DNA of 64,000 nt from NCBI GenBank assembly GCA_037969565.1, contig JBBKXQ010000008.1, positions 14,527 through 78,526 on the forward strand. The letters run 5' to 3'. Position 1 is the first letter of the stretch, and each line of letters begins with the position of its first letter. The position numbers and the translations under genes are program-made. Below, one piece after another: positions 23,987 to 53,091 of the stretch. The notes beneath the pieces are model-generated. The model saw nothing but the letters and a program-made list of their open reading frames with translations. It did no database searches and was not told the origin of the DNA. The DNA comes from Acidimicrobiales bacterium. GTDB lineage: Bacteria; Actinomycetota; Acidimicrobiia; Acidimicrobiales; SZUA-35.

Positions 23987-24385
23987 CTACGGTCCGGTTC
24001 GCCTCGCTACCGGGAGGAAGGCCCGAAGGAGATCGAAGCTGCTGACGATCCCGACCGTACCGCCGTCTCCGTCGACGATCAGATGATGGACCTGTCGGCT
24101 GAGCATTTTCTCTGCCGCATCGGCGAGCGTCGCTCCCTGATCGATTCGAATCGGTGACGACTGCATCACGTCGGCCACGGGAACATGGTCTGGCCAGTCA
24201 TCGACGAGATCAGTGCTGGTGATGATTCCGACCACGACACCATCCTCGACGACGGGTAGTGCGTTGATGTGCACACCAATCATCAGATCGCGGGCCCGAC
24301 CGACCCGATCAGAGGCGTGGACGGTCAAGATGTCCTCGGTCATCAAATCACTGACGAAATGGGCTATCTGTTCGCTTTTCATCAT
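23987..24385 (-). CDS. CBS-pair domain protein
   Basis: Starts MMKSEQIAHFVSDLMTEDILTV. Two CBS motifs (LPVVEDGVVVGIITSTDL and HHLIVDGDGGTVGIVSSFDLL). Confidence 0.8.
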   Translation of the reverse strand: MMKSEQIAHFVSDLMTEDILTVHASDRVGRARDLMIGVHINALPVVEDGVVVGIITSTDLVDDWPDHVPVADVMQSSPIRIDQGATLADAAEKMLSRQVHHLIVDGDGGTVGIVSSFDLLRAFLPVARRTGP

Positions 24386-24420
24386 GGTTCCATCTGACGC
24401 CGAGTTGCCGCTGCGTGATA

Positions 24421-24434
24421 GGGCCGTTGGTCCC
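24421..24434 (-). promoter_or_regulatory. DosR/DevR-like box B1 (GGGCCGTTGGTCCC)
   Basis: 14-bp quasi-palindrome. Its centre lies 42.5 nt upstream of the CBS start codon at 24385. Confidence 0.55.
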
Positions 24435-24455
24435 GGTGCGGAATACACCGATCGC

Positions 24456-24469
24456 GGGACGTTCTGCTC
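24456..24469 (+). promoter_or_regulatory. DosR/DevR-like box B2 (GGGACGTTCTGCTC)
   Basis: Conserved distal half-site GGGAC. Centre is 42.5 nt upstream of GTG 24505, with GACGAT at -12..-7. Confidence 0.45.
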
Positions 24470-24504
24470 TCCCCGAGCCCCGAACAATTCCTGACGATGA
24501 AACG

Positions 24505-25431
24505 GTGACTTCCCGGCAACTCGTCATCCTGGGATCATCCAGCCAAGTGCCAACAAGGGACCGCGCCCAGAATGGCTACGCAGTTCAGTGGGATGAGCAG
24601 CTGTTTCTGTTCGATCCGGGCGAGGGATTTCACCGTCAGACACTCTTGGCCGGAGTGGCGATCTCACGAGCGAACGCGCTGTTCATCTCGCACTTTCACG
24701 GAGATCACTGCCTTGGCTTGCCGGGCCTCATCCATCGCCGCTTGCTCGAACCCGGCGTCCCTCTCTTGCCGACCTTCTATCCCTCCGAAGGCGAGGGAAT
24801 CCTCGACATGCTGATGCACGCAAGTTTCGACAGCACCCCTCCGGCGCTCGAGCTACGTCCGGTGATGGGTTCGGGCTCGCTCGGCCATTTGGGTGACCTC
24901 GAAATCACCGCTGCTCGTCTCGAGCATCCCGCGCCGACCTACGGGTATCGGATCTCGGAGGTTGACTCGATCGGATTCGATGCACGAAAGCTGAAAGCGG
25001 CCGGTCTGACCGGGAAGGCGGTCGGCGATCTCGAGCGCGACGGGAAGGTCATGACGCCGCAGGGCCGTCTTCACCGCGCTGATTTCGAACAACCCCGACC
25101 TGGCCAGTCGATTGCATTCGTCATGGACACCGCATTCTGTGATGCTGCTCTGACGCTCGCCCACGGAGTGGACCTTCTGATCTGCGAAGCGACTTTCCTC
25201 GAAAGTGATCGACGGCTTGCCGACGAATCTGGCCACATGACAGCCCGCGACGCCGGGCGGCTGGCGAGCGAGGCGGGAGCACGTCGGGTGGTCCTCTCCC
25301 ACTTCTCGGCTCGATACTCCGATGCAGCCAAGTTCGGCGAGGAAGCAGGCGAGCTGCACCCGGATGTCGTCGTGGCTCGTGACCTGGCTCGGATTCCGTT
25401 CCCGTTGCGGGTCCCGAGGGGAAAGGCCTGA
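24505..25431 (+). CDS. MBL-fold hydrolase, ribonuclease Z/BN-like
   Basis: LVILGSSSQVPTRDRAQNGY...LFDPGEG and the HxHxDH motif ISHFHGDHCLG. GTG 24505 was chosen because the annotated upstream part overlaps the promoter boxes. Confidence 0.7.
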   Translation: MTSRQLVILGSSSQVPTRDRAQNGYAVQWDEQLFLFDPGEGFHRQTLLAGVAISRANALFISHFHGDHCLGLPGLIHRRLLEPGVPLLPTFYPSEGEGILDMLMHASFDSTPPALELRPVMGSGSLGHLGDLEITAARLEHPAPTYGYRISEVDSIGFDARKLKAAGLTGKAVGDLERDGKVMTPQGRLHRADFEQPRPGQSIAFVMDTAFCDAALTLAHGVDLLICEATFLESDRRLADESGHMTARDAGRLASEAGARRVVLSHFSARYSDAAKFGEEAGELHPDVVVARDLARIPFPLRVPRGKA

Positions 25432-25461
25432 CAACCTTGGCGGGAAGTCGGTTGGAGACAA

Positions 25462-27293: not shown

Positions 27294-27304
27294 ATCGAGG
27301 AGGC

Positions 27305-27318
27305 GGGCCCTTCGACCC
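27305..27318. promoter_or_regulatory. DosR/DevR-like box B3 (GGGCCCTTCGACCC)
   Basis: Located in the divergent region between the eRF1-like gene and ppdK, 88 nt (centre) upstream of the ppdK ATG. Confidence 0.4.
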
Positions 27319-27399
27319 TACGGGGCACGGATCTAGCTCGACAGCATGGGGGGCAGGCCCCGGGACGCGCCCGAGGTGATCAGAAAGGTCGCGATCGCC

Positions 27400-30126: not shown

Positions 30127-30143
30127 TGGGCAACACCCCCGAC

Positions 30144-38039: not shown

Positions 38040-38138
38040 GACTTGCTCCTTGGTGTCAGAGCTCCTCGAGTGGAACTCGTCGTATGGGCGGTGGCCCGTC
38101 CCTTCACCACTGACGCTACGCACCAGAGGCGTGATGGG

Positions 38139-38696
38139 CTAAGGGCTTTCGTCCCAATGCGGGGCGAGCCCAGGCGGATCGGCTGCTTGCGTTCGATTGT
38201 CTGTGCGTTGCCGAAGCTCACTCGCAATCGCTCGAGCCCACTGCCCGATTTGGTCCCATTCCCGAAAGTCGCCGGATGGCGCTCCGACCCATTTGGCAAC
38301 GAAGCGCTCGGTCCGTCCGAGGTCGTCGAGTCGGAGTCGGCCACTGAACAGCCGGTGCTCGATGGCGCCGGTTGTGGTGACGAGCTGTTCGATCACCTCG
38401 GGGTGAACCGGTTCTTCGGGTCGGGCCTCTCCGAGGGGTCCGCTGCTGAAGAGCCAGGTGGGCTTCGAAGTCAGTACGGGGGAGTGTTGGGTCACGAATG
38501 CTGAAGCCGCGGGAAGCCATTCTCCTAGATAGACGGCGCTTCCGATGACGAAACCTTGGTAGTGGCTCAGGTCGTGGATGTCCGCGGGTTGACTCACGTC
38601 GACATCGATGCCCTCACCCCGAAGCGTTGTGGCGATGGCGCGTCCGATCTCGGCGGTGCCGCCGTGTTTGCTGGCTGGGCTGACGAGAACTCGCAT
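38139..38696 (-). CDS. Flavodoxin-domain protein
   Basis: MRVLVSPASKHGGTAEIGRAIA...FVIGSAVYLGEW, a flavodoxin_5/HemG-like pattern. Confidence 0.65.
   Translation of the reverse strand: MRVLVSPASKHGGTAEIGRAIATTLRGEGIDVDVSQPADIHDLSHYQGFVIGSAVYLGEWLPAASAFVTQHSPVLTSKPTWLFSSGPLGEARPEEPVHPEVIEQLVTTTGAIEHRLFSGRLRLDDLGRTERFVAKWVGAPSGDFREWDQIGQWARAIASELRQRTDNRTQAADPPGLAPHWDESP
38142..38155 (-). promoter_or_regulatory. DosR/DevR-like box B4 (minus-strand reading GGGACGAAAGCCCT)
   Basis: About 109 nt upstream of the SQR start. Overlaps the last codons of the flavodoxin-domain gene. Confidence 0.35.
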
Positions 38697-38785
38697 TTTC
38701 GTACTCCCTTGCTGCAGCAGAACTTGTCCGGGCTCTGCCTGTGCTGGTGTTCAACCATTGTCCCCGGACGTGGGTGGGCTGTCCC

Positions 38786-38799
38786 GGGGCGAAGGTCCC
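38786..38799. promoter_or_regulatory. DosR/DevR-like box B5 (GGGGCGAAGGTCCC)
   Basis: Located in the divergent region between the flavodoxin-domain gene (start 38696) and the GNAT gene (start 38928). Confidence 0.35.
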
Positions 38800-38927
38800 A
38801 GCCGGACCAGGCTGGTTTGGGCTGACACGGATCCGCGGACCTCCGACCCTGTTCCAAATCTGCCCCAACTCCGAGGATGGCATCTGTTCGAACGGAGGCC
38901 CCTGACTCGAGTAGGAGGACAGCGAAC

Positions 38928-39863
38928 GTGTCGAAGGATCTTGCGACGACACAACCCGATGAAACACCGAACGAAGCACCGTCGTGTGCGTTGTGCGGGC
39001 CCCCGCTTCCTCTTGAGGGCAATCGGGTCATCCGTATCCGCCACCTCGTGTCCTCGGACGCCGCCGGTCTCAAACGCCTCTACGGTTCGCTCTCGGCCGG
39101 GGATCTCACGCTGAGATTTTTCACCGGAGCGGCGCCGGCAGATTCGTTCTTCGAGCGATGGGCGGGTGTGGCGGAACTCGGAGGGTTCGGATTGGTGGCC
39201 GAGCTCGACGACGTCGGGGAGCACCATCTGATCGGTGACGCCGCCTATACCCCGCTCAGCGACGGAGATGTGGAGCTCGGAATAGCCGTCGACCCTGGCC
39301 ATCGAGGTTGGCTGGGATCGACGCTGCTGTCCGCCCTCCTCGCCCATGCGCACGAACGAGGAGTCAGCAACGTCCAGGCCATCGTGAAAACCGACAACCT
39401 CGCGATGCGAGGACTTGCATCCAAGCGGCCGTGTGCGGTGTTCGGACACCTGGATTGGGACATCGTTCGTCTCACGATGTCGACCGACGGCTCAATACCG
39501 GGCTGGCCACCGAACAAGGTCCGGCCGCGAGTCCTCGTCGAAACGAATCGCACCCGCTGGATGGGGGAGGACCGACTGCGAGAAGCGGGCTTCGACGTGA
39601 TGCTCTGTGCCGGATCAGAACACCCTGACCATCATTGTCCTGTCCAGAACGGGCTGCCCTGCCCGCTCGTGGACGGCGCCGATGCGGTTCTCGTCGACCT
39701 CGATCCCACCTCCGAGCGAACCCGTGAACTGATTGCCGGCGAGCGTGAGCTCCACCCGGCCGTCCCTCTCGTCGAGGGTTTCCGTCGCGCCGACGACGAG
39801 CTGCCCCATCGCAGAGACATTGGCCTCGTTGTCGACGAGATTCAGCGTCTGACCGAAGGCTGA
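38928..39863 (+). CDS. GNAT acetyltransferase with an uncharacterised C-terminal extension
   Basis: GTG 38928 lies 9 nt after AGGAGG. GNAT core is VELGIAVDPGHRGWLGSTLLSALL...NLAMRGLA. The C-terminal ~130 aa carry HPDHHCPVQNGLPCP. Confidence 0.65.
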   Translation: MSKDLATTQPDETPNEAPSCALCGPPLPLEGNRVIRIRHLVSSDAAGLKRLYGSLSAGDLTLRFFTGAAPADSFFERWAGVAELGGFGLVAELDDVGEHHLIGDAAYTPLSDGDVELGIAVDPGHRGWLGSTLLSALLAHAHERGVSNVQAIVKTDNLAMRGLASKRPCAVFGHLDWDIVRLTMSTDGSIPGWPPNKVRPRVLVETNRTRWMGEDRLREAGFDVMLCAGSEHPDHHCPVQNGLPCPLVDGADAVLVDLDPTSERTRELIAGERELHPAVPLVEGFRRADDELPHRRDIGLVVDEIQRLTEG

Positions 39864-40107
39864 GACTTCAGAGCGCGTCGTGCTCGCTTCACCCCATTCC
39901 GGCCGCATTCCCTCGTCTGCTCGTCGAGTGTCCACACCGGTCTGCGTCGCCGGGGCGGGGAAGCCGCTTTTTCCGGATCGACCTCCTGTGGCTCGGACTC
40001 TGGCTGCCACAGCTTTTCCTGTGTTGTCCCCATGGGAGAAGCGTGACAGAACATCAGATCCAGTTACAGGGTCAAATGTCACCCCTGTAATTTGCTTTTT
40101 GGGATCG

Positions 40108-40121
40108 GTGACCTTCTGCTC
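40108..40121 (+). promoter_or_regulatory. DosR/DevR-like box B6 (GTGACCTTCTGCTC)
   Basis: 12/14 identical to box B2. Centre is 42.5 nt upstream of ATG 40157, with AACGAT at -12..-7. Confidence 0.45.
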
Positions 40122-40156
40122 TTGGTCGGTCGCCAGTTCGGGGAAACGATGCATCA

Positions 40157-40603
40157 ATGAAACGGATCATTGTTGGTGTCGACTCTTCGGATGACGCGAA
40201 TCGAGCGCTGCACTGGGCACTCGACAACGCGGGCGAGGGCGACACGATCGTCGCCGCCCATGCGTGGCAGATCTACTCGATTGGTGATCCTGCTACGCCG
40301 CCGTACGACCCAGCCGACTTCGAGGTCGACGCAAGGCGCAGACTCGAAGAACTCGTGGCCGAGGCGGCGGGCCGCGGCGCCGTGGTTGAGATCGAGTTGG
40401 CCGTGCACCACGGCGACCCGGCCAAGACACTCGTCGAGTTGTCGAAAACTGCCGACCTCGTGGTGGTCGGGAGTCGCGGCTTCGGAGGGTTTCGTGACCT
40501 CCTGCTGGGGTCTGTCAGCACGAAGGTCGTGCAGCACTCAGTGTGTCCTGTCGTCGTCGTTCCCGGCCACGGCCGGGAGGGTCGGTCGACCCCGGGCATG
40601 TGA
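40157..40603 (+). CDS. Universal stress protein (UspA family)
   Basis: MKRIIVGVDSSDDA...LVVVGSRGFGGFRDLLLGSVSTKVVQHSVCPVVVVP (ATP-binding G-x2-G-x9-G-S motif). Confidence 0.9.
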   Translation: MKRIIVGVDSSDDANRALHWALDNAGEGDTIVAAHAWQIYSIGDPATPPYDPADFEVDARRRLEELVAEAAGRGAVVEIELAVHHGDPAKTLVELSKTADLVVVGSRGFGGFRDLLLGSVSTKVVQHSVCPVVVVPGHGREGRSTPGM

Positions 40604-40691
40604 GGGTCGTCGAATATGACTTCGGCCCCTGACTCGGATTCGGTCGACCGCATAGTTTCGACTCAGGACCAACTTCGAAAGGAAGCGACTC

Positions 40692-41594: not shown

Positions 41595-41655
41595 GCACCC
41601 AACCGAGAACACAGTCGAGCAGACACCAGTAGAACAAAACCAATAGGAAGGCAAC

Positions 41656-42063
41656 GTGGCAATGATGAGGAACACCGGGCAACCAATGACCGTCGGGGAT
41701 CTGATGAGCGGTGACATCGTTGCCGTCGATGGCCTCGATCCCGTAGAAGCTGTTCGTGAAATTCTTCTCGCATCCGGGCTTCATGCCCTTCCGGTGCTGG
41801 ACGAAGGTGCGAGGGCGATCGGGATCGTGACACTCGCCGATCTCTTCAATGCAGAAGATGAGCAGCAACCAGTCTCCTCGGTGATGGCGCAACCAATTGT
41901 CACCATTGACGTTCAGGCGTCATTGGCCGAGGCGGCTTCCGTGATGAAGAGCGAGTACCTCCATCATCTGATCGTGACTGAAGGACTCGAAACCATCGGG
42001 ATACTCAGCACATTCGATCTGTTGACCGTTTTCGTCGAACCTGCGGCGAACCGGAACAACTGA
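41656..42063 (+). CDS. CBS-pair domain protein
   Basis: MTVGDLMSGDIVAV...LPVLDEGARAIGIVTLADL...HHLIVTEGLETIGILSTFDLL. Confidence 0.8.
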   Translation: MAMMRNTGQPMTVGDLMSGDIVAVDGLDPVEAVREILLASGLHALPVLDEGARAIGIVTLADLFNAEDEQQPVSSVMAQPIVTIDVQASLAEAASVMKSEYLHHLIVTEGLETIGILSTFDLLTVFVEPAANRNN

Positions 42064-42162
42064 GCGAGTCTGTTGTCCGACACCGGGTCGTCTCACACCG
42101 GGTCGTCTGTGCCGTCCGCCACCTCCCGACGGCGCGAGAGCGAACGAACGAACGATGTGGTC

Positions 42163-42176
42163 GGGACCTTGGGCCC
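42163..42176 (+). promoter_or_regulatory. DosR/DevR-like box B7 (GGGACCTTGGGCCC)
   Basis: Centre is 42.5 nt upstream of ATG 42212, with CACGCT at -12..-7. Confidence 0.55.
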
Positions 42177-42211
42177 TGGGGGGCCGACCAGACCACGTCC
42201 ACGCTTGACGC

Positions 42212-43375
42212 ATGACTACTGGAATGGTTCGGCGTGTACTCGTCCCTGTCACCATCGGAAGCGACGAGGATCATCTGATCTTCACCGCAACGGTTCTCGC
42301 TCGATGGTTCGACGCAGCCGTCCAACTCATCGCGAACGACCCAGCCGATCTTCAACACCTACGGATGTTGTCTGAAGGACTTGGGGCGAAATACGAGCCT
42401 CCGATTTTGCTCGAGTCGGCCGACTTCCTTCGGGGTGTGGCCGGTCATGCTGCGCAGGTGGGTCCGTCGGTCACCGTCGTGGGGCTGGATGACGGCGGCG
42501 TCGACCTAGCCGCGATCAACTCACAGCCAACATTCGTCACCGGTGCTCGGGTCGGTCATCGCCTGGAGTCGGGTCCGCTCGTCGTGGAGGTCTCGAGCCG
42601 GGTTCAGCGACTGGATGCTCTTGCAGTGGCGGCCGTCTGGGCCCAGGCACTCGATCTGGGGATCCGAGTCGTTGTGGGCACGGGCGATGTCCGCCGAGAC
42701 GATTTGGCCGCCGCAGTAGGGCGCCTTCGAGAGATGGGGATCGATGTAGGGGTCGACAGTCTCCGAACCCATGGTTTCGACCCACTCGTTCTCGTCGCCA
42801 GAAGTCGTCATTCCACTGCCATCGTTGTCGCCGCCGATCGAGTGACTCGCGAACTCGTCGAACGTGCAGCGCGGGAAGGGCTCTCGGTACTGGTTGCACC
42901 AGTCGATGAGAACTCCGAGCCGTTGCTCCCCGCAGGTTTCGCCGAGAATTCCCCGGGTCACGAGGTTCTCGTGCTCGATGACGAAGAGTGTCTCGCCCGG
43001 CTCGAAGGTGAACGTGTCGGCCGGATCGGCTACATCGATGATGGATGGCCGAACATCGTGCCGGTGAACTTCTCGAACCGGGACGGCGCGATCTTCTTTC
43101 GAAGCCTGGTTGGGGGAAAGCTCTCGGCTGCTCGCCGCCACTCCGTGGTCTGCCTGGAAGTGGACGGCTTCGACGTCGAGTCGAAGTCGGGCTGGAGTGT
43201 GCTTGCCCATGGTGAGCTGGAGGTGATCGACGACCCGATGGTGCTCAAGACGGCCTGGCGGAACGATCCCGCTCCTTGGGTCGAGTCCGAACATTGGCAG
43301 TGGCTCCGACTCGTGCCGATCTCGGTGAGTGGCAGGCTCGTGGCTGCACGCGATGCAGATGCCGGAAGGGACTAA
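42212..43375 (+). CDS. Fusion of a degenerate USP-like region and a PPOX-family domain
   Basis: The N-terminal ~230 aa look USP-like (RRVLVPVTIGSDEDH...) but lack the glycine ATP motif. The C-terminus RVGRIGYIDDGWPNIVPVNF...GWSVLAHG matches the PPOX proteins above. Confidence 0.6.
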   Translation: MTTGMVRRVLVPVTIGSDEDHLIFTATVLARWFDAAVQLIANDPADLQHLRMLSEGLGAKYEPPILLESADFLRGVAGHAAQVGPSVTVVGLDDGGVDLAAINSQPTFVTGARVGHRLESGPLVVEVSSRVQRLDALAVAAVWAQALDLGIRVVVGTGDVRRDDLAAAVGRLREMGIDVGVDSLRTHGFDPLVLVARSRHSTAIVVAADRVTRELVERAAREGLSVLVAPVDENSEPLLPAGFAENSPGHEVLVLDDEECLARLEGERVGRIGYIDDGWPNIVPVNFSNRDGAIFFRSLVGGKLSAARRHSVVCLEVDGFDVESKSGWSVLAHGELEVIDDPMVLKTAWRNDPAPWVESEHWQWLRLVPISVSGRLVAARDADAGRD

Positions 43376-43833
43376 CCGCACGAAGCGAGCAGTTCGACGA
43401 TGCGCCTGGTCACCACCGGAACTGCGTCGGCAACTGCTTCGGTCAAGGTGTCGAATTGCCCACAGCGCTCCACTTCCACGCCGATGACAACGAGTTGTTT
43501 CGGCAGCCGGTCGAGCAGGCGTCCGAGTTCGATCCCCTCGGCAAGGCCCACGCCGTGGCTGGAAAGCAGTGTGTCCTCGGTTGCCAATCGGTGTCGCAAC
43601 GCGTCAGTCTCGACGATGCTGCCTGCGGGTCGTCCGCTCACCATGGCGTCGACGACAACGACGACGTGGTCGGGGCTCCAACGCAAGGCCAGGTCGGATA
43701 GATCTCCCTCCGCGATGTAGGTCTCGACCCATGGTTCGATCATGGGGCGCAAGGTGTCGATCACGATCGGACCGAATCCGTCATCGCCCCGGTCGCGATT
43801 GCCGACGCCGATCACGAGCGGCGGCCGGCTCAT
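43372..43833 (-). CDS. Hydrogenase maturation endopeptidase
   Basis: [19 protein letters not shown] and LVVIGVE motifs. Overlaps the large-subunit stop. Confidence 0.8.
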
Positions 43834-45158
43834 GAGATCTCAGCGTCGTCGATCGCATTGTGAATCGCGTCGTCGATCGTCAGCTTCAAGAAGTGGGTCG
43901 AGCAGGAGATGCACGGGTCGTAATTACGGATGGTCTGCTCGCAGCGGAGTTGCAGCTCGTCCAGATCGAGATGAAGGTTCGCAGCCACGAAGCGGCGGAG
44001 ATCGGATTCGATGCACGGCTGGTTCTGGGCCGTCGGAGGAATGATCTGCGCCTCGAGAATCCTTCCGCCGTCGTCGATGCGATACCGATGGTAAAGCAGA
44101 CCGCGCGGTGCTTCGGTTGCGGCCCAACCCTCGCCGGCGCGGGCAGGTACCTCGACGAAAGGTTGCTCGGGCGGAACGTACGCGTTGATCACGCGGAGCG
44201 CCTCCTCGATGGCAAAGAGGGTTTCGAGGCCTCGAACCACGATGCTCTTGAACGGGTTGGTTTCGACCGGCCCCATACCCACCTCTACGGCGAGAGCCTG
44301 CACGTCGGAGGGAAGGAGATCGAAGTTGTTGGCGTACCGGGCGAGTGGGCCCACCTGGTACCAGTGGCCATCACGAAAGCGGGAGTGGAGCGCAGTGGAG
44401 TGAGCAACGTGTTCTTCCACCGAGACCTGCTCGAACTCGCTGGCGTCGATGTCGAGTCCCCGATTCGAAACGATCCGCCCTTCGTTGAACGGGTACTCAT
44501 CAGGGTGTCGAAGCGAGACGAATTCATAGTCGTGTGAGAGTTCGGGGAAGTCGAAACCGGCGGTCCATCGGATGAGGTCGATGCAGATCTCCCTCGCCTC
44601 CTCCAGCTTGGGCACGAGGCTCGTGAGTTCTTGACGAGTCGGTGCTCGGTAGAACCCGCCGAGGCGCACGTTCACCGGGTGGATCGGTCGTCCACCAACG
44701 ACGTCGACCACCGCGTTTCCGGTTTTCTTCAGAGTGAGGACTCGCTCGACCATCTCGGGGTGGTCGGCCGCGATGGCGATTCCGGAGTGGTATCCGAGAA
44801 AGTCAGGGGCATGGAGGAAGCCGATGTGGAGCACATGACTCTCGATCCACTCACCGCAATACAGAAGGCGGCGAAGCTCTCGTATCGAGCCTCCTATGGT
44901 CACCCCGCAAGCTCGCTCGATCGAATGAGCGGCGCTCATCTGGTAGGCAACCGGGCAGATGCCACAGATTCGCGCCGTGATGTCGACCGGTTCGGTGTAG
45001 TCGCGGCCCCGGAGGAGCGCTTCGAAGAAACGGGGTGGCTCATAGATCTCGAGTCGAACGTCGGTCACCTCACCATTGGCAACGGTGACATGCATGGCGC
45101 CTTCGCCCTCGACGCGAGCGAGCACTGGCACGTGGAAGTCCACGTTCTTGTGGGTCAT
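43830..45158 (-). CDS. hyhL: [NiFe]-hydrogenase large subunit, group 3b-like
   Basis: N-terminal [10 protein letters not shown] and C-terminal DPCISCSTH nickel-binding motifs, followed by a removable extension. Confidence 0.85.
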
Positions 45159-46006
45159 GACGGTTCCCCTCTACCGGTTCTACCGAACGCGACGGCCACC
45201 TCTGTCGGGGACCGCCGGTTCGCTTCGTCTCGGAACGGTTGGGCCCAGCCGTTGTAGCTTCGGAACGTTCGGGCGATCTCGGCGTCATCCATGCCCAGAT
45301 GAGTCAACTGCTGAGCCAGGGACTGGGTGTTCGGGCTTTCCATCGGGCCGAAGCATCCGTAGCAGCCTCGGTTGTAGGCCGGGCAGAGCGCGTTGCATCC
45401 AGACTGGGTCACGGGGCCGAGGCAGGGAGTTCCGTGAGCGACCATGATGCATGGGTTCCCCCTGGACTTGCACTGGACACAAACGCTCGTGGTCGGGATC
45501 CGCGCCGGCCTACCCGCGAGATGCGCTGCGATGACCTCGACGAGTTGACCCCGATCGATGGGGCAACCGCGTAGTTCGAAGTCGACTTCGACGTGGTCTG
45601 CGATCGGGGTGGAGGTTTCGAGGGTCGAGATGAATTCCGGGTGGGCGTACACGATGCCCATGAACTCCTCGATGTTTGCTCCGTTCCGGAGCGCCTGAAT
45701 TCCTCCCGCCGTGGCGCAGGCGCCGATGGTGATCAGTGAGCGTGACTGCCGGCGAATCTCGACGATCCGCTCGCGATCATGTTGAGTCGTGATGGACCCT
45801 TCGACGAGAGAGACGTCGTACGGACCCGTGGCCATCCTGCTCGAGGCTTCGGGGAAGTAGGCAATGTCGAGGCGGCCGGCGACTGCCAGCAAATCGTCTT
45901 CGCAATCGAGAAGGCTCAGCTGGCAGCCATCACAAGACGCGAACTTCCAGACGGCGAGTGTCGGGTTCGGGGGTCGGGACTTCGTTGCGCTTTCGATTCG
46001 TGACAT
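45155..46006 (-). CDS. hyhS: [NiFe]-hydrogenase small (delta) subunit, group 3b-like
   Basis: Starts MSRIESATK; [18 protein letters not shown]...[13 protein letters not shown]. Confidence 0.8.
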
Positions 46007-46019
46007 GGATGTCGACCTC

Positions 46020-46904
46020 TCAGAGTTCTCGCACGCGGTGGAATCGACCAACGTCGGCGTAGTTGACCACCGGACCATCTCGGCAGATGAGGAAAGGGCC
46101 GAGCTGGCAGTGGCCACACAGCGCGTTGCCGCACTGCATGTTTCGCTCGAGCGTCAGCCAGAGGCGGTTCTCGGGCACACCGAGTTCGTGGAGCGCCAAT
46201 GCGGTGAAATGCATCATCACGTCAGGGCCGCAGATGAAGACAGTGGTGTCGGTCCAGTCGACGCCCAGTCCGGCGGGAGTGCCGAGCAGGTCGGTGACGA
46301 GTCCGACCGAGCCCGCCCATGCGTCATCGCCCTGGTCGACAGTGAGCCGAACGTCCAACCCCAGCTCGCTCCACCGATCGAGGTCGCCTTGATAGAGGAT
46401 GAGATCGGGCCGCTTTGCTCCGTAGACGAGGGCCAGATCGTCGAATCTGCTGCGCTCTTCGATGGCCAGATCGATGAGGGCACGAAGTGGGGCGATACCC
46501 AGGCCACCACCGATGATCACGAGGTTCTTCGTAGCAATTGTGTCCAATGGCCAGCCTTCACCGAACGGACCGCGCACGGTGACAACTCCTCCGATCGGCA
46601 CCTCGGTGAGTGCCCGCGTGATTGGGCCGGCTCGTCGGATGGTGTAGGCGTGATGCGATCGAGTCGAAAGCGGCGAACTGATCGAGATGGCGGCTTCACC
46701 GACCCCAAAGGCTCCGAGCATGCTCACCTGGGCCGGTCGGAAGGCGGGGAGTTCACCCTCCACCGGCACCACGTGAAGTGAAAAGGTGTCGTCCAATTCC
46801 TGGATTCGGTCGATCACCCGAAAGGGTCTCGGGACGAGGAGTGGCGAGAGTTCCGAGCGATCTCGGACGGGTACGAGGCCGGATTTCGAGTCAGTTGGTG
46901 CCAT
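46020..46904 (-). CDS. hyhG: Hydrogenase gamma subunit (FAD/NAD(P)-binding, 2Fe-2S)
   Basis: Ferredoxin-reductase-like fold ([22 protein letters not shown]) and a C-terminal [12 protein letters not shown] cluster motif. Confidence 0.75.
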
Positions 46905-48045
46905 GCCCGGGAATCCTTTCCCGCTGCACTGTTCCGCGCATTTCGGCGACCTCGATCGTGAGATCGATTCCCACGGGACACCAGGTGATGCAGCGCCCAC
47001 AACCAACGCAGCCGGATTCGTCGAACTGATCGATCCAACTGGCGAGTTTGTGCACGAGCCACTGGCGATATCGGGACTTGGTCGAGCTGCGATGAGGGCC
47101 ATCTCCGAGATGGGAGAATTCGAGGCTGAAGCAGGAATCCCAAACTCGCCACCGGTCGGTGATGTCGCCGCTCAGGTCGGTGACGTCCTCGAGATTGGTG
47201 CAGAAGCAGGTGGGGCAGGCGAGCGTGCAGTTCCCGCAGCTCAAACAGCGTTCGGCCACGTCGTCCCAGCGGGGATTCTCCAAGTTGTCGTAAAGGTGAT
47301 CCTTGATCCCGTTCGTATCGAGCTTTCGCACGATGCGGCTCGCCGCATTCTCGACGACACCTCGTGCGGCTTGCTGCTCGGTCGGGCTGGTGGGCGACGT
47401 CGCGATGTCGGCTAGTACGTCGGCGCCACGGTCGGAGCCGACCTCGACGACGTAACGCACGTCGGCCCCGTCCACGAGTTCGGTCAGTGCAAGATCGAAA
47501 CCTGATTTCGCTTCCGGACCGGTTCCCATCGACGTGCAGAAGCAGGTGCTGGCCGGATCACCGCAGTTCACGGCAATCAGGAATGCGTGGTCTCGATTGG
47601 TTCCGTAGACGGGATCGGGGTGAGGACCTTCGAGTAGGACTCGGTCCTGCTTTGCGATTGCTGCGAGCTCGCAAGGGCGGACTCCGAGAAATGCCCGGAG
47701 CAGTGGTTCGGGTTCGTGCATTCGCACGTCGAGGTCGCCGGTTTCTGTCCGCCTCATCGTCCACACGGGAGACCGGGACGGATGCAGGAGTTCTTTCCAC
47801 GACTGTGGCCCAACGGCATAGCCGAATCTGGCTCCGTCCTCTCGTGGGACGAGTCGGTAGCGACCGCCCTGCTGCTCGTCGGTCCAACCGAGCGGGAGGT
47901 CAGCGACGGACGTCAGCCGATCATGGGCGATGACCCCGTTCTGAACCTGGGGTCCGAAAACTTCGTAGCCGCGACCACCGAGTGCGTTGATCAGGTTTTG
48001 CAGGCCGTCGAGACCGAGAGAGACCGCGGTGCTGGTCGCCATCAC
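46891..48045 (-). CDS. hyhB: Hydrogenase beta subunit (4Fe-4S dicluster)
   Basis: [16 protein letters not shown] and [18 protein letters not shown] 48045 is immediately followed by ATG 48042. Confidence 0.75.
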
Positions 48046-48077
48046 TCCAGTTTCCGCTGAGTCTGATGTCTCGCACA

Positions 48078-48091
48078 GGGACTTTGGTCCC
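48078..48091 (-). promoter_or_regulatory. DosR/DevR-like box B8 (GGGACTTTGGTCCC)
   Basis: The best palindrome of the set, one mismatch from the M. tuberculosis core GGGACTTTAGTCCC as I recall it. Centre is 42.5 nt upstream of ATG 48042, with GAAACT at -12..-7. Confidence 0.6.
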
Positions 48092-48097
48092 TCCGGA

Positions 48098-48111
48098 GGG
48101 ACGTTCGACTC
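48098..48111. promoter_or_regulatory. DosR/DevR-like box B9 (GGGACGTTCGACTC)
   Basis: Second, half-degenerate box 20 nt (centre to centre) from B8, in the hyh/fadD divergent region. Confidence 0.3.
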
Positions 48112-48194
48112 TGGCCGACAACCACAAGACTGTCATCAATGGAACCATCGATGGTGGCGTTCGACCGACCGAATGCAGTGAAAGGGACGAGATC

Positions 48195-49985
48195 ATGAAG
48201 AAGGATGCATCTGGGCCGCAACTCGAGGCCCACCAAGGCAATCGCAGCGCAGTGGCCGCCGTGGCCCAACGCGCAGCCGAATCTCCCGACACGGCATTGG
48301 CCGCAGTCCGACAAGGCAATCACTTCATCGACCGATCGTGCGCAACAGTCTGGGCCAGGGTGCGCGGACTCGCCAAAGGGCTGATCGCATCCGGCGTGGC
48401 GCCGGGCGATCGGGTTGCGCTCATGGCAAGCACCCGGCTCGAGTGGCTCGAGATCGATCTCGCCATCAATGCAGTCGGAGCCGTCACGGTGCCGATCTAT
48501 GACACATCCTCGGCCAGCCAGATCAGTTGGATCATGGAGGACAGCGGTTCGGTGCTCCTCATCGTCGAGACCGACGTTCTGGAGGTCGAAGCCAAAGCAA
48601 GCGGAGAGGTCGATGAGTGCCGAGAGATCCTCGTCATCGACCGCGGGGATCTAGACGACTTGGCCCATCGAGGCTCGCAGGTAGCTGACGAAAGGCTGGA
48701 TGCACTCGTCGATTCCATCAGACCGGAATCCATCGCGACGATCATCTACACCTCTGGTACGACGGGTCGTCCCAAGGGATGTGTTCTGACGCACAGAAAT
48801 CTGGCAGTGAACGTCTACCAGGTCGGTGACGCCCTGGCTGGTGCCATCGGTCCCGCGGATACCGCACTGCTCTTTCTGCCGTTGGCCCACGTGCTCACGA
48901 AGACGACCGCGCTTTTCTGTCTTGGTGCCGGCGTTCGGATCGCCTTTGCGACTTCTCTGGCGAAGCTTCCCGAGGAGTTCGCGCTGGTCAATCCGTCACT
49001 CATTTCGGCGGTCCCGCGGATCTTCGAAAAGGTGTATGCCAAGGCTCAGCAGAAGGCCCTGGCCGACGGGAAGGGGCGGATTTTCGACCGCGCCGCCCAG
49101 ACGGCGATCCACTGGTCGCAACAACGCGAGGCCGGCTCGATCCGGCTCACCACGAAGGCCGAACACTGGATCTTCGACCGCTTGGTGTATCGCAAGATCG
49201 CCGCCGCTTTCGGAGGCGAATTGCGAATGGCGTTCAGCGGAGGAGGGCCGCTGGGCGAGCGGCTGACGTGGTTCTTCGACGGTGTCGGCCTCCGGATCTA
49301 CGAGGGCTACGGACTGACGGAGACGAGTCCGATTCTCACGATCAGCCGAACAGACGGCTGGCGACCAGGCTCGGTCGGACGGGCTGTGGCCGGAACACGA
49401 ATTCGCGTGGCCGAAGATGGCGAGTTGTTGGTGAAGGGTCCGCAGGTTTTCGGGGAGTATTGGAAGAATGCGGCAGCCACCGATGAGGCTTTCGACTCCG
49501 ACGGGTGGTTCCTCACGGGGGACGTCGGCGAGGTCGATGCTGCTGACTTCGTTCACATCACGGGGCGTAAGAAGGAACTGATCGTGACAGCCGCGGGGAA
49601 GAACGTGGCACCGGCCCCGCTCGAGGATCGAATTCGGTCCGACGCCCTCGTGAGTCAGGTCGTGGTGGTGGGGGACCGGCGGCCGTTCATCGCCGCGCTG
49701 GTGTCGATCGACGAGGATGCATTTGTCGACTGGTCGGCCGGGCACGGTCTCGCCGGCGCGACGGTGGCTGAGTCGACGGAGAACCAGTTGCTCAGAGCTG
49801 AAGTCCAGGGCGCGATCGACGAGGCAAACCGTTCCGTTTCCACAGCTGAGTCGATCCGTGCCTTCGCCATCACCCCTCGCGATTTCGCTCTGGACCGTGA
49901 TGAGATCACGCCAACGCTCAAGATCCGCAGGATGGTCGTTGAAGATCACTACCGGGATCTGATCGAGTCGATCTACGCCGGATAG
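48195..49985 (+). CDS. Long-chain acyl-CoA synthetase (AMP-forming)
   Basis: AMP-binding motif IIYTSGTTGRPKGCVLTH; YEGYGLTETSP; GWFLTGDVG. ATG 48195 follows AAGGGA. Confidence 0.85.
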   Translation: MKKDASGPQLEAHQGNRSAVAAVAQRAAESPDTALAAVRQGNHFIDRSCATVWARVRGLAKGLIASGVAPGDRVALMASTRLEWLEIDLAINAVGAVTVPIYDTSSASQISWIMEDSGSVLLIVETDVLEVEAKASGEVDECREILVIDRGDLDDLAHRGSQVADERLDALVDSIRPESIATIIYTSGTTGRPKGCVLTHRNLAVNVYQVGDALAGAIGPADTALLFLPLAHVLTKTTALFCLGAGVRIAFATSLAKLPEEFALVNPSLISAVPRIFEKVYAKAQQKALADGKGRIFDRAAQTAIHWSQQREAGSIRLTTKAEHWIFDRLVYRKIAAAFGGELRMAFSGGGPLGERLTWFFDGVGLRIYEGYGLTETSPILTISRTDGWRPGSVGRAVAGTRIRVAEDGELLVKGPQVFGEYWKNAAATDEAFDSDGWFLTGDVGEVDAADFVHITGRKKELIVTAAGKNVAPAPLEDRIRSDALVSQVVVVGDRRPFIAALVSIDEDAFVDWSAGHGLAGATVAESTENQLLRAEVQGAIDEANRSVSTAESIRAFAITPRDFALDRDEITPTLKIRRMVVEDHYRDLIESIYAG

Positions 49986-50019
49986 CGGCCTGCGACTGCC
50001 TGTGGCAGACCGGGGACTC

Positions 50020-50044
50020 ATACCGGGTGGGACGTGCCCGGTAT
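50020..50044 (+). terminator. Hairpin (8-bp stem ATACCGGG/CCCGGTAT, 9-nt loop) 35 nt after the acyl-CoA synthetase stop
   Basis: Perfect inverted repeat read directly from the sequence. No U-tract. Confidence 0.3.
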
Positions 50045-50156
50045 CGAAGTCGTGCAGCTTGCTGGCTCTCGTGGGATGCCCGACGAAGTCCATGCCTTGG
50101 CGGGGGCGTGTGACCGTGATGAACACGGTTGGAGGCTCATGCCAGAGACGCGAACG

Positions 50157-50188
50157 CGGTTCGAGCCCCCTTGCGAGGGCTCGAACCG
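50157..50188 (-). terminator. Hairpin (12-bp stem CGGTTCGAGCCC/GGGCTCGAACCG, 8-nt loop) 39 nt after the stop of the minus-strand membrane protein gene
   Basis: Perfect inverted repeat between convergent genes. A second small palindrome GTCGAT-TAT-ATCGAC lies at about 50198-50212. Confidence 0.4.
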
Positions 50189-50226
50189 TTCTGACTGTCG
50201 ATTATATCGACGAGGGTGTCTCCGTG

Positions 50227-50943
50227 TCAGCTGACCTTGACTTGCGTCTTCGGCCCGTTGAGGAACTCCTCGGGGACGGTGTCGGGGAAGTCGACCTCCG
50301 TCTTCTTGCCTCTGATGGCCCACACCAGGCCACCACCGGTCAGCATGAATGTCAGGCCGAGTGCGGCGAACAAGCCGGAGAGTGCGAGGCCCATTTGTAG
50401 GGTCGAGTGGGTGACGGTGCCAACACCGAGCTCGCCGATCAGGCCGTGAACGGTTCCGCTCCACGCCTGCTCACGAGCCGGTCCTTCGATCGGGTGTGAG
50501 CGGTCGAAGTCGGTCCAGTAGCGGCCGCCGACATTGAACTCATAGGTTCCGGCCGTGAAGACCTCACCGTTGTATTCCACGTCCTCGGGAAGGACCACCG
50601 TCTGGGTGCCGTTCAGCGTGTGATAGCTGACGGTTGCCATCTGGTACATGTACTCCGTAGCAGTGTTGACCAGCGGGTCGTTGGGGTCAAGATCGCCCCT
50701 GACAACCGGGAACTTCCAATCGTCGGTGAGCGTGGCCATGATGGCGTCCGCCCCTTCGGTTGTGCCTCGGTCGGTCAGCTGGCCGGCTTCGTTGTAGGTG
50801 AGCTCCACAGCCTGGGCTGCGCTGAAGGCTTGGAGTGAGTCGTAGCCGTCCTGGACTCGGCCGTAGGCGACGCCACCGGCCACCAAGAAGCCCAGCCCGA
50901 CTGCCAATAGTGCATATCCAATCAGCTTGAGTCGGTTCCTCAT
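50227..50943 (-). CDS. Membrane protein (N- and C-terminal TM helices flanking an extracytoplasmic domain)
   Basis: 238 aa from MRNRLKLIGYALLAVGLGFLVAGG, with C-terminal TM GLALSGLFAALGLTFMLTGGGLV. No family recognised. Confidence 0.5.
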   Translation of the reverse strand: MRNRLKLIGYALLAVGLGFLVAGGVAYGRVQDGYDSLQAFSAAQAVELTYNEAGQLTDRGTTEGADAIMATLTDDWKFPVVRGDLDPNDPLVNTATEYMYQMATVSYHTLNGTQTVVLPEDVEYNGEVFTAGTYEFNVGGRYWTDFDRSHPIEGPAREQAWSGTVHGLIGELGVGTVTHSTLQMGLALSGLFAALGLTFMLTGGGLVWAIRGKKTEVDFPDTVPEEFLNGPKTQVKVS

Positions 50944-50998
50944 GACATCTTCTCCTCGTTTGGTAGATCGCAGATCGTTCTGCGATCGCTTGAAACGA

Positions 50999-51442
50999 TC
51001 ATTTCGCCAAACGACGATTGGCGACAGGGACCTTCGTCCCGAAGCACGGAGAATCTTCGGCAGGTCGCTCGAGGCCGAGTTCTGCAACGCCGAGCTCCGC
51101 GATGCCATGGGCGAGTTCGAGCAGAGCGGTTGGTTGCAGCCGATAGCGAACATTCGGTCCGTCTTGGCACGCACAGATGAGGGCGGCTTCACGGAGAAGC
51201 CGGAGGTGTTCGGAAATGGTGGATCGAGCCAGTCCCGATTCCACGGCGATGTCTCCAGCCGCAAGCGAGCGATGGGTCGCCAGTTCTGCGACGATCGACA
51301 CTCTCGCCGGATGGCCGAGGCTTCGGGCTTGTAGAGCCAGCCGTTCGATTCTCGCCCGCTCTGACGCAGGCTGACCGAGCTCGCAGCGCGGGCCGAAACC
51401 TGATGGTGAGGCGGTGCGCTTGCAGGGGGGCAAGGAGACCAT
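50999..51442 (-). CDS. ArsR/SmtB family transcriptional regulator
   Basis: LGHPARVSIVAELA...GDIAVESGLARSTISEHLRLLREAALI wHTH. The start abuts the USP stop. Confidence 0.75.
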   Translation of the reverse strand: MVSLPPCKRTASPSGFGPRCELGQPASERARIERLALQARSLGHPARVSIVAELATHRSLAAGDIAVESGLARSTISEHLRLLREAALICACQDGPNVRYRLQPTALLELAHGIAELGVAELGLERPAEDSPCFGTKVPVANRRLAK

Positions 51443-51931
51443 TTAGTCCTCCGGTCCTGGATTGTGGACAACCAAAACACTGCACGTCGCGTGATGAACA
51501 ATCTTGGTCGAGACGCTGCCGAGCAGCAGGCGTTTGCCGACGCCATGGCCCCGACTGCCCACAACGATCAGGTCGCCATCGCGCTGCTCGGCCGTGGCCA
51601 GTAAGCCATCGAACGCGGTGCCGATGATGGCGTGCCGAAACACCTTGATGCCGCGTTCGTGGAGCCCCAATCGTTGGAGCTCGGCTTCGGCCGAAACGAG
51701 ATGGTTCCTGGCGATTTGACCCATCGCTTCGGCATCTGCGTCGTGGCCGTCCAACTCGCCAGCGAAGTCTCCCATTCTCCACCCGACAAGCGGGTGGTAG
51801 CACGAAACGAGATGCACTTCCACGTTGTTCGCAGCGGTGTTCGCAGCGGCGAGAGCCAATTCTCCCGCCCGCTCGACCGCGGCCGATCCTCCGGCGGATC
51901 CGTCTGTCCCGACAACGATTCGCTCGTACAT
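51443..51931 (-). CDS. Universal stress protein
   Basis: MYERIVVGTDGS...LIVVGSRGHGVGKRLLLGSVSTKIVHHATCSVLVV. Confidence 0.9.
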   Translation of the reverse strand: MYERIVVGTDGSAGGSAAVERAGELALAAANTAANNVEVHLVSCYHPLVGWRMGDFAGELDGHDADAEAMGQIARNHLVSAEAELQRLGLHERGIKVFRHAIIGTAFDGLLATAEQRDGDLIVVGSRGHGVGKRLLLGSVSTKIVHHATCSVLVVHNPGPED

Positions 51932-52045
51932 GGCTGCTCCTGTTCGGCAGGGACCGCTGATCTCGGTCTCGCGTTCAGTTCAACGCTTGTCGTCGTTGAC
52001 GAATTCGACCATGGCCAAAGGTCCTCGAAAGCGTCAGCTTTTGTT

Positions 52046-52059
52046 GGGCCCTCCGACCC
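52046..52059 (+). promoter_or_regulatory. DosR/DevR-like box B10 (GGGCCCTCCGACCC)
   Basis: One mismatch from box B3. Centre is 43.5 nt upstream of GTG 52096, with CAGGCT at -13..-8. Confidence 0.45.
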
Positions 52060-52095
52060 TTCCGCTGGCCACGGTGCTGGCGCAGGCTCGAGTAC

Positions 52096-53091
52096 GTGAG
52101 CACTCTGAGCGATTCGCACGCCGAGGTCCGAGATCAGTCGAGGACGCGAGATCAGTCGGGAGTTCGGAAGCCTCGTCTCGTCGTGGGGCTCGACGGTTCC
52201 GAGGGATCCCTCAAGGCGCTTCACTGGGCGGCTCATCGTGTCGAGATGTTGGGCAACATCCAGACGGTGACGGCCTGGCACCTCCCGTGGTGGGCTGGAG
52301 AAGGAGCGCCGAACCGAGTCGCCGACTATCACCGAGCTGCCCAAAAGCGTCGCATCGTCGAGGAGCACCGCGTTGCCCAAGAGGAGCGAGAGGGTGCGTT
52401 CGCTCGCCAGGTCCGCGCCTCGATCGTGCGCCTTCTCGAGGACGTTCCCGCCGCCGAACACGCAGAGCCGCTCATCACGCTGGGTTCGGCCGGCTCTGTC
52501 CTGGTCCGGGAAGCCCGGCCGCCGGATGTGATCGTTGTCGGGTCGAGAGGCCGGGGCGCGGTGGTCGACGCGATCCTCGGATCAGTGAGCCTGCATTGTA
52601 TTTCGCATGCTGAGGTGCCCGTGGTCGTTGTGCCATCACACGCTCCCCTTCTCGATGAGTCGGCACACGTGGTTGTCGGTGTGGATGGTTCGTTGAACTC
52701 GATCGGGGCGTTGGTCTGGGCGCTCGACCACGTTCCGGTCCGCTCGAAGATCGAGGTCATCCATGTGGTCGACGTTTTGCCTGTGAGCAACGAGTCGCAA
52801 GCGCAGATGGCGATGGGGCTGGGCGAAGAACTGCTCGATCGAACGATCGACTCGGCTGAACGACAAACGACAGAAAGCGAGAGTCGGGAGTTGTTGCGGA
52901 GAGTGGCGTCCGGCGATGCACGGCATGTCCTTCTGGACGCTTCATCCGGCCGAGACATGCTGGTCATCGGCGCTAGAGGCCGGGGCAGACTGAACGACTT
53001 GCTATTGGGTTCGGTTGCAAGTTCTCTCTGTCATCAGCCACTTGCCCCAACGGTGGTGGTGCCAGTGGCGGCTGCGGCAGGGATCTCCTGA
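52096..53091 (+). CDS. Tandem-domain universal stress protein
   Basis: Two USP halves ending in VIVVGSRGRGAVVDAILGSVSLHCISHAEVPVVVVP and MLVIGARGRGRLNDLLLGSVASSLCHQPLAPTVVVP. Confidence 0.85.
   Translation: MSTLSDSHAEVRDQSRTRDQSGVRKPRLVVGLDGSEGSLKALHWAAHRVEMLGNIQTVTAWHLPWWAGEGAPNRVADYHRAAQKRRIVEEHRVAQEEREGAFARQVRASIVRLLEDVPAAEHAEPLITLGSAGSVLVREARPPDVIVVGSRGRGAVVDAILGSVSLHCISHAEVPVVVVPSHAPLLDESAHVVVGVDGSLNSIGALVWALDHVPVRSKIEVIHVVDVLPVSNESQAQMAMGLGEELLDRTIDSAERQTTESESRELLRRVASGDARHVLLDASSGRDMLVIGARGRGRLNDLLLGSVASSLCHQPLAPTVVVPVAAAAGIS

Follow-up and report, generated by a model that had tools for sequence, protein, structure and literature searches.

This study concerns a 64-kb stretch of an Acidimicrobiales (Actinomycetota) genome, referred to here as the window, and a recurrent promoter element found within it; all coordinates are whole-window positions. 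According to Pfam, the island under study encodes several universal stress proteins (USPs), CBS pairs, three PPOX-family proteins, flavodoxin-like proteins, a phosphoribosyltransferase (PRTase), ppdK, PFOR, a four-subunit NiFe hydrogenase and a baeRF protein, and these classes (USP, CBS, PPOX-like, PRTase, redox enzymes and hydrogenase) are the typical content of a DosR/DevR dormancy regulon. Six genes of the window carry, at a nearly fixed distance upstream of the start codon, a 14-mer akin to GGGACnnnnGTCCC (hereafter the box), followed by a −10-like hexamer. A preliminary description of this DNA had proposed that these six genes have leaderless promoters of the class II activated type. The six sites were re-read and then aligned on their start codons (four ATG and two GTG), and the distance from the box centre to the first base of the start codon was recalculated from the sequence. 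All six distances of the preliminary description were reproduced, namely 42.5 nucleotides (nt) at the CBS, RNase Z, USP, USP-PPOX and hydB genes and 43.5 nt at a tandem USP gene, and all six hexamers were found where it had placed them, each beginning 30.5 nt past the box centre. An Rfam search of the window returned zero matches.

Genes and boxes of the leaderless candidates

The CBS-pair protein gene (132 amino acids (aa) from ATG 24385; Pfam CBS) occupies positions 23987..24385 on the minus strand. Its box, GGGACCAACGGCCC in gene orientation (24421..24434, minus), is centred 42.5 nt from the ATG, and its hexamer, TCAGAT (24392..24397, minus), lies at −12..−7. Divergent from it is the RNase Z gene (24505..25431, plus; 308 aa), previously labelled RNase Z-like and in fact a bona fide RNase Z homologue, in which the degenerate box GGGACGTTCTGCTC (24456..24469, plus) is centred 42.5 nt from GTG 24505 and followed by GACGAT (24493..24498, plus). 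A USP of 148 aa (40157..40603, plus; Pfam Usp) is preceded by another degenerate box, GTGACCTTCTGCTC (40108..40121, plus), centred 42.5 nt from ATG 40157, with AACGAT at 40145..40150 (plus). The same distance separates the box GGGACCTTGGGCCC (42163..42176, plus; hexamer CACGCT at 42200..42205, plus) from ATG 42212 of a gene encoding a USP-like N-terminal domain fused to a PPOX (Pyridox_ox_2) domain (42212..43375, plus).

The hydrogenase operon (43372..48042, minus) is four-subunit and group 3b-like; it encodes the beta (Fer4), gamma (NAD-binding), delta and alpha subunits plus a HycI protease, and its layout resembles that of the group 3b Hyd3, a DosR-controlled enzyme of Mycobacterium smegmatis. 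The leaderless candidate is its first gene, hydB, with the perfect box GGGACCAAAGTCCC (48078..48091, minus) centred 42.5 nt from ATG 48042 and the hexamer GAAACT (48049..48054, minus). At the tandem USP gene (52096..53091, plus; 331 aa), the box GGGCCCTCCGACCC (52046..52059, plus) is centred 43.5 nt from GTG 52096 and the hexamer, CAGGCT (52083..52088, plus), stands at −13..−8 of the GTG, making this a leaderless or 1-nt-leader candidate.

The six genes listed in the preliminary description hold, and a seventh candidate had been overlooked. The box GTGACATTTGACCC (40069..40082, minus), with the hexamer CACGCT (40040-40045), predicts a transcription start site (TSS) exactly at ATG 40033, the first codon of an unannotated 63-codon open reading frame (ORF; MGTTQEKLWQPESEP...; 39842..40033, minus) divergent from the USP gene at 40157. 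This ORF has no Pfam match, and no homologue was present in the fetched loci. Its transcript may encode a small protein, or may be a DosR-dependent non-coding or antisense RNA overlapping the 3' end of the GNAT gene.

Two further observations concern the hydrogenase region. A second box lies 20 bp from that of hydB (48098..48111, plus) and is probably the proximal box of the divergent gene for an AMP-binding enzyme (ATG 48195, Shine-Dalgarno (SD) sequence GAAAGGGA). In addition, when the gamma subunit is read as its longest ORF (46020-47102), it shares about 210 nt with hydB (46891-47102); as homologues align only from residue ~84-90, the true start of this subunit is suggested to lie further downstream.

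Spacing between the box, the hexamer and the start codon

Thirteen oriented sites of the window were aligned, anchored on the box. Their consensus reads GGGAC-C-W-W-n-G-n-C-C-C-T, then 22 nt, then nAnnnT, with G-4, C-2 and C+5 (box-centred numbering) being invariant. The hexamer has A at −11 in 12 of the 13 sites and T at −7 in all of them, its first base being T in merely three, which places it in the VANNNT class; hexamers of this class are the weaker ones in M. smegmatis (PMC6448022). The box covers positions −49..−36, and the sole conserved base of the −35 region is a T at −35 (12/13 sites). This T directly follows the proximal half of the box (box column +8) and is also found in nearly all related sites, while the mirror position ahead of the distal half is an A in 1/13 only; judged by this pattern, the T looks like a promoter-side determinant, perhaps read by sigma region 4, and not like part of the symmetric operator. 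The two halves of the box differ as well, most clearly in one base: of the 13 distal halves, 11 retain the A of GGGAC, and of the 13 proximal halves, only two retain the mirror T. Among the six genes, the distal half had been described as better conserved in every case, which is strictly so in four; the hydB box is symmetric and the tandem USP box has one mismatch per half, leaving a tendency. The RNase Z box (24461-24470) and the box of the 148-aa USP (40113-40122) have the same odd proximal half, TTCTGCTCT, in place of which an RNase Z orthologue (locus L087, near 500) carries TTCTCCTCT. This half could be a conserved variant half-site or a site for a second factor.

A scan for consensus sigma-70 promoters over positions 39800-52200, which hold four of the six promoters, found no TTGACA/TATAAT promoter in the intergenic regions, and this fits activator dependence. 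The sole near-consensus promoter in that interval, CTGACA-18-TATAAT (50201-50230, minus; 11/12 matches), sits at the stop codon of a 238-aa gene and faces the gap before the convergent AMP-binding gene.

Could the regularity be a coincidence, or the product of freedom in choosing boxes and starts? The palindrome itself, at ≤2 mismatches, is not enriched over the whole window (42 occurrences against ~73 expected; 37 against 66 in a repeat count), which speaks for coincidence, and the significance of the spacing is therefore drawn from the coupling of the box to the hexamer and to start codons. With the hexamer defined as nAnnnT starting 30.5 nt past the box centre, all five boxes with ≤1 mismatch are followed by it in one orientation (5/10 oriented sites), as are 9/74 (12%) of those with two mismatches, against a background of 0.031; the enrichment is confined to intergenic boxes coupled with a hexamer. 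When box, hexamer and an ORF-opening start were required jointly across the window, four hits fell at 42.5 nt and one at 43.5 nt, nearly every other offset between 25.5 and 80.5 having 0-1 hits. An early histogram of offsets to any ATG or GTG near strong boxes, drawn from 80 hydrogenase loci, was too noisy; limited to ORF-first starts, it gave a modest bump (8/78 in three bins). A secondary peak at 34.5 nt (ppdK ATG 27346 and GNAT ATG 38877) was rejected as an artefact: a hexamer ending in AT and followed by G makes an ATG, and both of these codons fall within −10 hexamers (CAGCAT and GAGGAT), upstream of the predicted TSS.

A scan of a species-level genome collection gave the same answer as the window. 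We searched for GGGACCnnnGnCCCT-N23-ANNNT followed by an ATG within 0-30 nt, which yielded 125 sites in 120 loci. An ATG occurred 31 times at gap 6 (equal to 42.5 nt) and 15 times at gap 7 (43.5 nt), the other 29 gaps averaging 3.2, and 30 of the 31 gap-6 ATGs open ORFs of at least 60 codons. The proteins encoded include PPOX-family, USP, flavodoxin-like and PRTase-like proteins and DosR itself (MIRVFLVDDHEVVRRG, in Sphaerisporangium and Herbidospora), and among the hosts are members of the Acidimicrobiales, Streptosporangiales, Kitasatospora, Pseudonocardia and Micrococcales; one of the matching loci (L098) is from a cultured member of the Acidimicrobiia, Salinilacustrithrix flava EGI L10123. 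The spike in this collection suggests that a module of box, −10 element and start codon is common across Actinomycetota. The hexamer coupling, the joint scan and the public-genome scan are thus each strongly enriched at exactly this offset, and ORF structure dictates three of the six starts. Chance as the source of the spacing is excluded, and the freedom of choice in picking boxes and starts is given practically no weight as an explanation.

The preliminary description had pointed out that the regularity would vanish if the start codons were wrong; they hold. Those at 40157, 42212 and 52096 are the earliest possible starts of their ORFs, and in the 40157 protein the match to the Pfam Usp profile begins at residue 1. 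For the USP-PPOX fusion, 12 homologues have four or five residues ahead of the motif V/I-x-R-V-L-L-P, fitting ATG 42212 and not ATG 42224. The hydB ATG 48042 lies one codon downstream of a GTG, and homologues align from residue 1. In the case of RNase Z, 88 of 120 homologues start with MSTRELIVLGT, parallel to VTSRQLVILGS from GTG 24505, and the start is placed at this GTG on account of these homologue N-termini. The call of the source (P0013, 338 aa, from GTG 24415) reads through both boxes and is probably wrong by the same comparison; the call for the L087 orthologue (489-560) likewise starts ~25-30 codons early, across the box. The least secure start is the CBS ATG 24385, although the resulting length fits a CBS pair, and starting further upstream would carry the ORF into the divergent RNase Z gene and across both boxes.

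Shine-Dalgarno sites, leadered promoters and orthologues

The absence of an obvious SD sequence at the six genes, also claimed earlier, is borne out by duplex energies with the anti-SD tail, computed for the seven leaderless candidates and 11 leadered neighbour genes. These range from −0.2 to −7.5 kcal/mol for the former versus −7.5 to −12.1 kcal/mol, at normal spacing, for the latter. When the TSS is placed 42.5 nt downstream of each box centre, the predicted 5' untranslated regions (UTRs) are 0-1 nt long at the six genes and the seventh site (40033), and 27-67 nt long at eight promoters, all with SD sites. The predicted 5' UTRs are thus sharply bimodal, with none between 2 and 26 nt, and in six of the eight leadered promoters they are 43-54 nt long (46, 43, 54, 48, 45 and 48). 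The distance from box to hexamer is constant at leaderless and leadered genes alike.

The eight leadered genes are ppdK, GNAT, the second USP gene (40692), a flavodoxin-like gene, an oxidoreductase gene, the 238-aa gene, the USP gene at 51931 and the gene for the AMP-binding enzyme described above. Their promoters consist of GGGCCCTTCGACCC with CAGCAT for ppdK (27305..27347, plus; predicted TSS near 27354); CGGACCTCCGACCC with GAGGAT for GNAT (38836..38878, plus); ATGACTTCGGCCCC with TAGTTT for the second USP (40616..40658, plus; ATG 40692, SD GAAAGGAAG); GGGACCTTCGCCCC with GACAAT for the flavodoxin-like gene (38757..38799, minus; ATG 38696); GGGACGAAAGCCCT with TAGCGT for a pyridine-nucleotide disulphide oxidoreductase gene (38113..38155, minus; ATG 38039); and AGGACCTTTGGCCA with AAGCGT for a 162-aa USP (51983..52025, minus; ATG 51931, SD AGGAG). 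The second of the two perfect boxes, GGGACGAAGGTCCC (51027-51040), with AATGAT (50998..51040, minus, box included) falls within the 3' part of an ArsR-type gene (50999-51442), from where it appears to act as the internal promoter of the 238-aa gene downstream (start 50943), a homologue of which (68% identical) is the divergent neighbour of hydB in locus L077, with boxes between the two. From the promoter and SD positions, the real start of ppdK is most likely ATG 27400, behind GAAAGG, and that of GNAT GTG 38928, behind AGGAGG. The earlier statement that boxes further upstream go with SD sites stands for 40692, ppdK and GNAT. At PFOR and the divergent PPOX gene, we found half-sites only, no hexamer at the right distance and no convincing box.

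The arrangement was followed in relatives. A pattern search of genomes for relatives of the USP-PPOX gene gave zero, and homologues were taken from the protein database; the closest relatives of the hydB and RNase Z proteins are in Acidimicrobiales metagenome-assembled genomes (MAGs). Two USP-PPOX orthologues (loci L082 and L083; 43-48% identity) have a box exactly 42.5 nt from the ATG chosen by the gene caller. On a complete Acidimicrobiales chromosome (OZ244139.1, locus L084), five or six genes show the spacing: a USP gene has the box at 43.5 nt, and the USP-PPOX gene, a PPOX gene, a second USP gene and a 153-aa gene have it at 42.5 nt, each with nAnnnT and with independently called starts. 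In two loci (L003 and L077) the hydB ATG is at 43.5 nt, with GATGCT or TATGGT at −12..−7, and in two others (L001 and L002) hydB has a GGAGAGG SD sequence instead, with the box further upstream. For RNase Z, the unusual half-site (TGGACCTTCTCCTC) is retained at 43.5 nt in L087, and L086 has a GGGAGG SD sequence and no box. Loss of the spacing thus accompanies gain of an SD sequence.

These data bear on the possibility that the genes are transcribed from unrecognised upstream promoters into leadered mRNAs, the spacing then arising from mis-chosen starts or from a signal acting in translation. That the TSSs used here rest on prediction leaves room for it, as does the fact that 24385 and 24505 are internal to longer ORFs, the source call (P0013) having taken the longer one for RNase Z. 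However, the starts were validated independently, no upstream consensus promoter was found in the intergenic regions of 39800-52200, SD sequences are absent, the spacing recurs at gene-caller starts in other genomes with a ten-fold spike in the unbiased scan, and orthologues that lose the spacing gain an SD site. We regard this possibility as very improbable.

A side observation from locus L084 concerns the USP and USP-PPOX genes, which are divergent there and separated by an 85-nt spacer. A single symmetric box common to both (A-GGGGCCAAGGTCAC-T; 9916-10000) lies 43.5 and 42.5 nt from their respective ATGs. Judged from this layout, one dimer at this box could serve two leaderless promoters.

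Alternatively, the palindrome might work at the RNA level, forming a 5-bp hairpin that precedes the start codon by a constant distance, since GGGACnnnnGTCCC is able to fold into a short hairpin. Yet the degenerate proximal halves (TGCTC, GGCCC and GACCC) break the pairing and show no compensation, the single box of L084 serves two divergent genes, and the distance from box to hexamer is fixed even at leadered genes, so that an RNA role is extremely unlikely.

The putative regulator and its promoters

A search of the window with DevR (tblastn) found no NarL/LuxR-type regulator, and the same search of the first 80 loci found no close orthologue; with no regulator in the window, the binding protein is assigned by analogy. 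Orthologues do occur in related genomes. The regulator adjoining a USP-PPOX orthologue (locus L081) matches Mycobacterium tuberculosis DevR (PDB 3c3w) with E = 2.7e-55, and a protein of an Acidimicrobiales MAG (L209) matches PDB 3c3w over its full length with E = 3.8e-73, its recognition helix, FLAEKTVKNYVSnLLAKLGMERRT, being one residue off that of DevR. The L209 gene has an ATG that aligns with the DevR N-terminus; a box is centred 43.5 nt from this ATG, and CAGACT occupies −12..−7 (2880-2943). Altogether, dosR orthologues stand behind a box at 42.5 or 43.5 nt with a −10-like hexamer in an Acidimicrobiales MAG, Sphaerisporangium and Herbidospora (L209, L105 and L126), an arrangement which implies that dosR would be leaderless and autoregulated in these genomes.

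What the analysis shows is the geometry of the sequence with its statistics, its conservation and the start codons; from these we infer where transcription starts, which regulator binds, that it activates, and what induces it, probably hypoxia or redox stress. In our judgement it is quite likely that a DosR-like activator overlaps the −35 position and that transcription begins at the start codon itself. The proposed mechanism is as follows: the GGGACC-WW-n-G-n-CCC-T box would be bound by a dimeric DosR orthologue whose gene lies elsewhere in the genome; with the box centre at −42.5 or −43.5, the promoter-proximal half-site would stand in for the −35 element; contacts of the bound activator with sigma-A region 4 and alpha would bring in RNA polymerase, in the manner of class II activation; and transcription would begin 6-7 nt after a weak VANNNT hexamer located 30.5 nt past the box centre. 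At the six annotated genes and the one small ORF, the transcription start would be the A or G of the start codon, so the resulting mRNAs would be leaderless and translated without an SD sequence; at the eight further promoters, the same module would sit 27-67 nt upstream of an SD-preceded start. The claim that these promoters are leaderless and of the class II activated type agrees with each of its predictions at the level of sequence, namely a fixed box-hexamer distance, a predicted TSS that falls on the start codon at six or seven genes, the M. tuberculosis geometry and conservation.

Several points weigh against this interpretation: the window lacks the regulator, as noted above; the TSS positions are predicted, in the window organism as in close relatives; the proximal halves of the RNase Z and first USP boxes are very degenerate (TGCTC); the CBS hexamer, TCAGAT, has T at −7 and A at −10 without an A at −11; the −7.5 kcal/mol of hydB stems from a GGAG just 3 nt before its ATG; RNase Z has a housekeeping function and is not an obvious dormancy target; and DevR promoters of M. 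tuberculosis require two or more boxes in tandem (Chauhan et al. 2011, PMC3177182), while in the window only hydB has a clear second box at 20 bp.

The box might also be a repressor operator covering the −35 position of otherwise constitutive leaderless promoters. A site over −35 is a classic position for a repressor too, and the regulator is not encoded in the window. Against this, no −35-like hexamer is present and the −10 elements are weak VANNNT hexamers, which makes the promoters look activator-dependent; the box fits the DevR/OsdR motif, and the DevR orthologue of Acidimicrobiales has nearly the DevR recognition helix; and DevR at exactly such a position is a proven activator (PMC3177182, PMC13486717). 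Repression is thus improbable, and activation by a DosR-like protein is the interpretation that we retain.

Such a module carries the promoter architecture of DevR/DosR, which has to date been mapped in mycobacteria alone, over to an uncultured Acidimicrobiales lineage, and indicates that box, −10 element and start codon are able to form one rigid unit. In practical terms, the spacing rule fixes true starts (the existing calls for RNase Z, ppdK and GNAT being probably wrong), predicts TSSs without RNA data and flags an unannotated small ORF. More tentatively, the DosR-type regulons of Acidimicrobiia and many other Actinomycetota, dosR included, might be preferentially wired to leaderless mRNAs, a possibility to which we give less than even credence. 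If true: hypoxic or dormancy activation would be tied mechanistically to translation that needs no SD sequence, carried out for instance by 70S or hibernating ribosomes; one symmetric box would, in some genomes, drive two divergent leaderless genes ~86 bp apart; and TSS prediction and start-codon correction in uncultured Actinomycetota at large could rely on the 42.5/43.5 rule.

Comparison with known systems

Our literature search found no paper joining DosR with Acidimicrobiia, and a rigid, widespread module of box, −10 element and start codon is unstated in the papers found. The paper on OsdR of Streptomyces coelicolor (PMC5069765) does not mention spacing to start codons or TSSs, or leaderless transcripts. 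The rigidity and spread of the module, and its use by dosR itself in several orders, thus seem to be undocumented in the papers searched. The finding as a whole is the expected joining of two known facts, the class II geometry of DevR and the abundance of leaderless mRNAs in actinobacteria, and involves no new mechanism.

The closest parallel is DevR of M. tuberculosis. In seven of seven mapped promoters, the Dev box proximal to the transcription start point (TSP) lies 33 or 34 nt from it (PMC3177182, Table 1). At hspX (34 nt), the box centre is at −43.5, and the DosR dimer touches sigma-A region 4 and the C- and N-terminal domains of alpha (alpha-CTD and alpha-NTD) in a cryo-electron microscopy structure (PMC13486717); direct contacts of this kind are established for M. 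tuberculosis DosR alone. As 34 nt equals −43.5 at hspX, 33 nt corresponds to −42.5, and the window's 42.5 and 43.5 are the same two values. Further likenesses are the GGGAC...GTCCC palindrome, the proximal box over a weak −35 element, and the gene classes (USP, CBS resembling Rv2626c, PRTase resembling Rv0571c, and ferredoxin/flavodoxin). The proximal box lies 35 nt from the ATG and 34 nt from the TSP at fdxA, and 33 and 34 nt from the start codons of Rv0571c and Rv2627c, respectively (PMC3177182), indicating that the leaderless variant is already present in M. tuberculosis as a minority. However, such start-codon spacing occurs in ~3/24 promoters there, compared with 6-7 of ~15 in the window. 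Moreover, every M. tuberculosis promoter has two or more boxes in tandem. In the window, apart from the pair at hydB, three divergent regions hold two boxes 34-39 bp apart that would serve divergent genes, and the remaining promoters have one recognisable box each, although cryptic secondary sites may be present. The central bases also differ (CT-WW-AG in M. tuberculosis, CC-WW-n-G in the window), as does the host, here an uncultured member of the Acidimicrobiales.

The consensus of the 13 window sites agrees with those of M. smegmatis and Streptomyces. The motifs of OsdR of S. coelicolor and DosR of M. smegmatis, AGGGCCGATCGGCCCT and GGGACTTNNGNCCCT, bracket the window boxes GGGCCGTTGGTCCC and GGGACCTTGGGCCC (PMC5069765, PMC6448022), and USP genes cluster around the system, although the 64-kb window lacks the regulator-kinase pair.

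In M. smegmatis, ANNNT is found at −13..−6 in 79% of promoters, and 24% of transcripts are leaderless (PMC6448022); in mycobacteria, 24-40% of genes are leaderless (Cortes 2013; Shell 2015; both through PMC6448022 and PMC8022548). Like actinobacterial leaderless mRNAs, the candidates described here would begin with ATG or GTG, have ANNNT at about −12..−7 and lack an SD sequence. They differ in that their leaderlessness is deduced from sequence and is tied to the box of one activator.

At class II CRP and FNR promoters of Escherichia coli, the activator dimer is located ~41.5-43.5 bp upstream, replacing the −35 element and contacting sigma region 4 and alpha. In the window, the activator site likewise abuts or overlaps −35, and a functional −35 hexamer is absent at the sequence level. 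The putative regulator would belong to a different family, the NarL/LuxR response regulators, with its site centred at −42.5 or −43.5, and the correspondence with CRP and FNR is thus a functional analogy.

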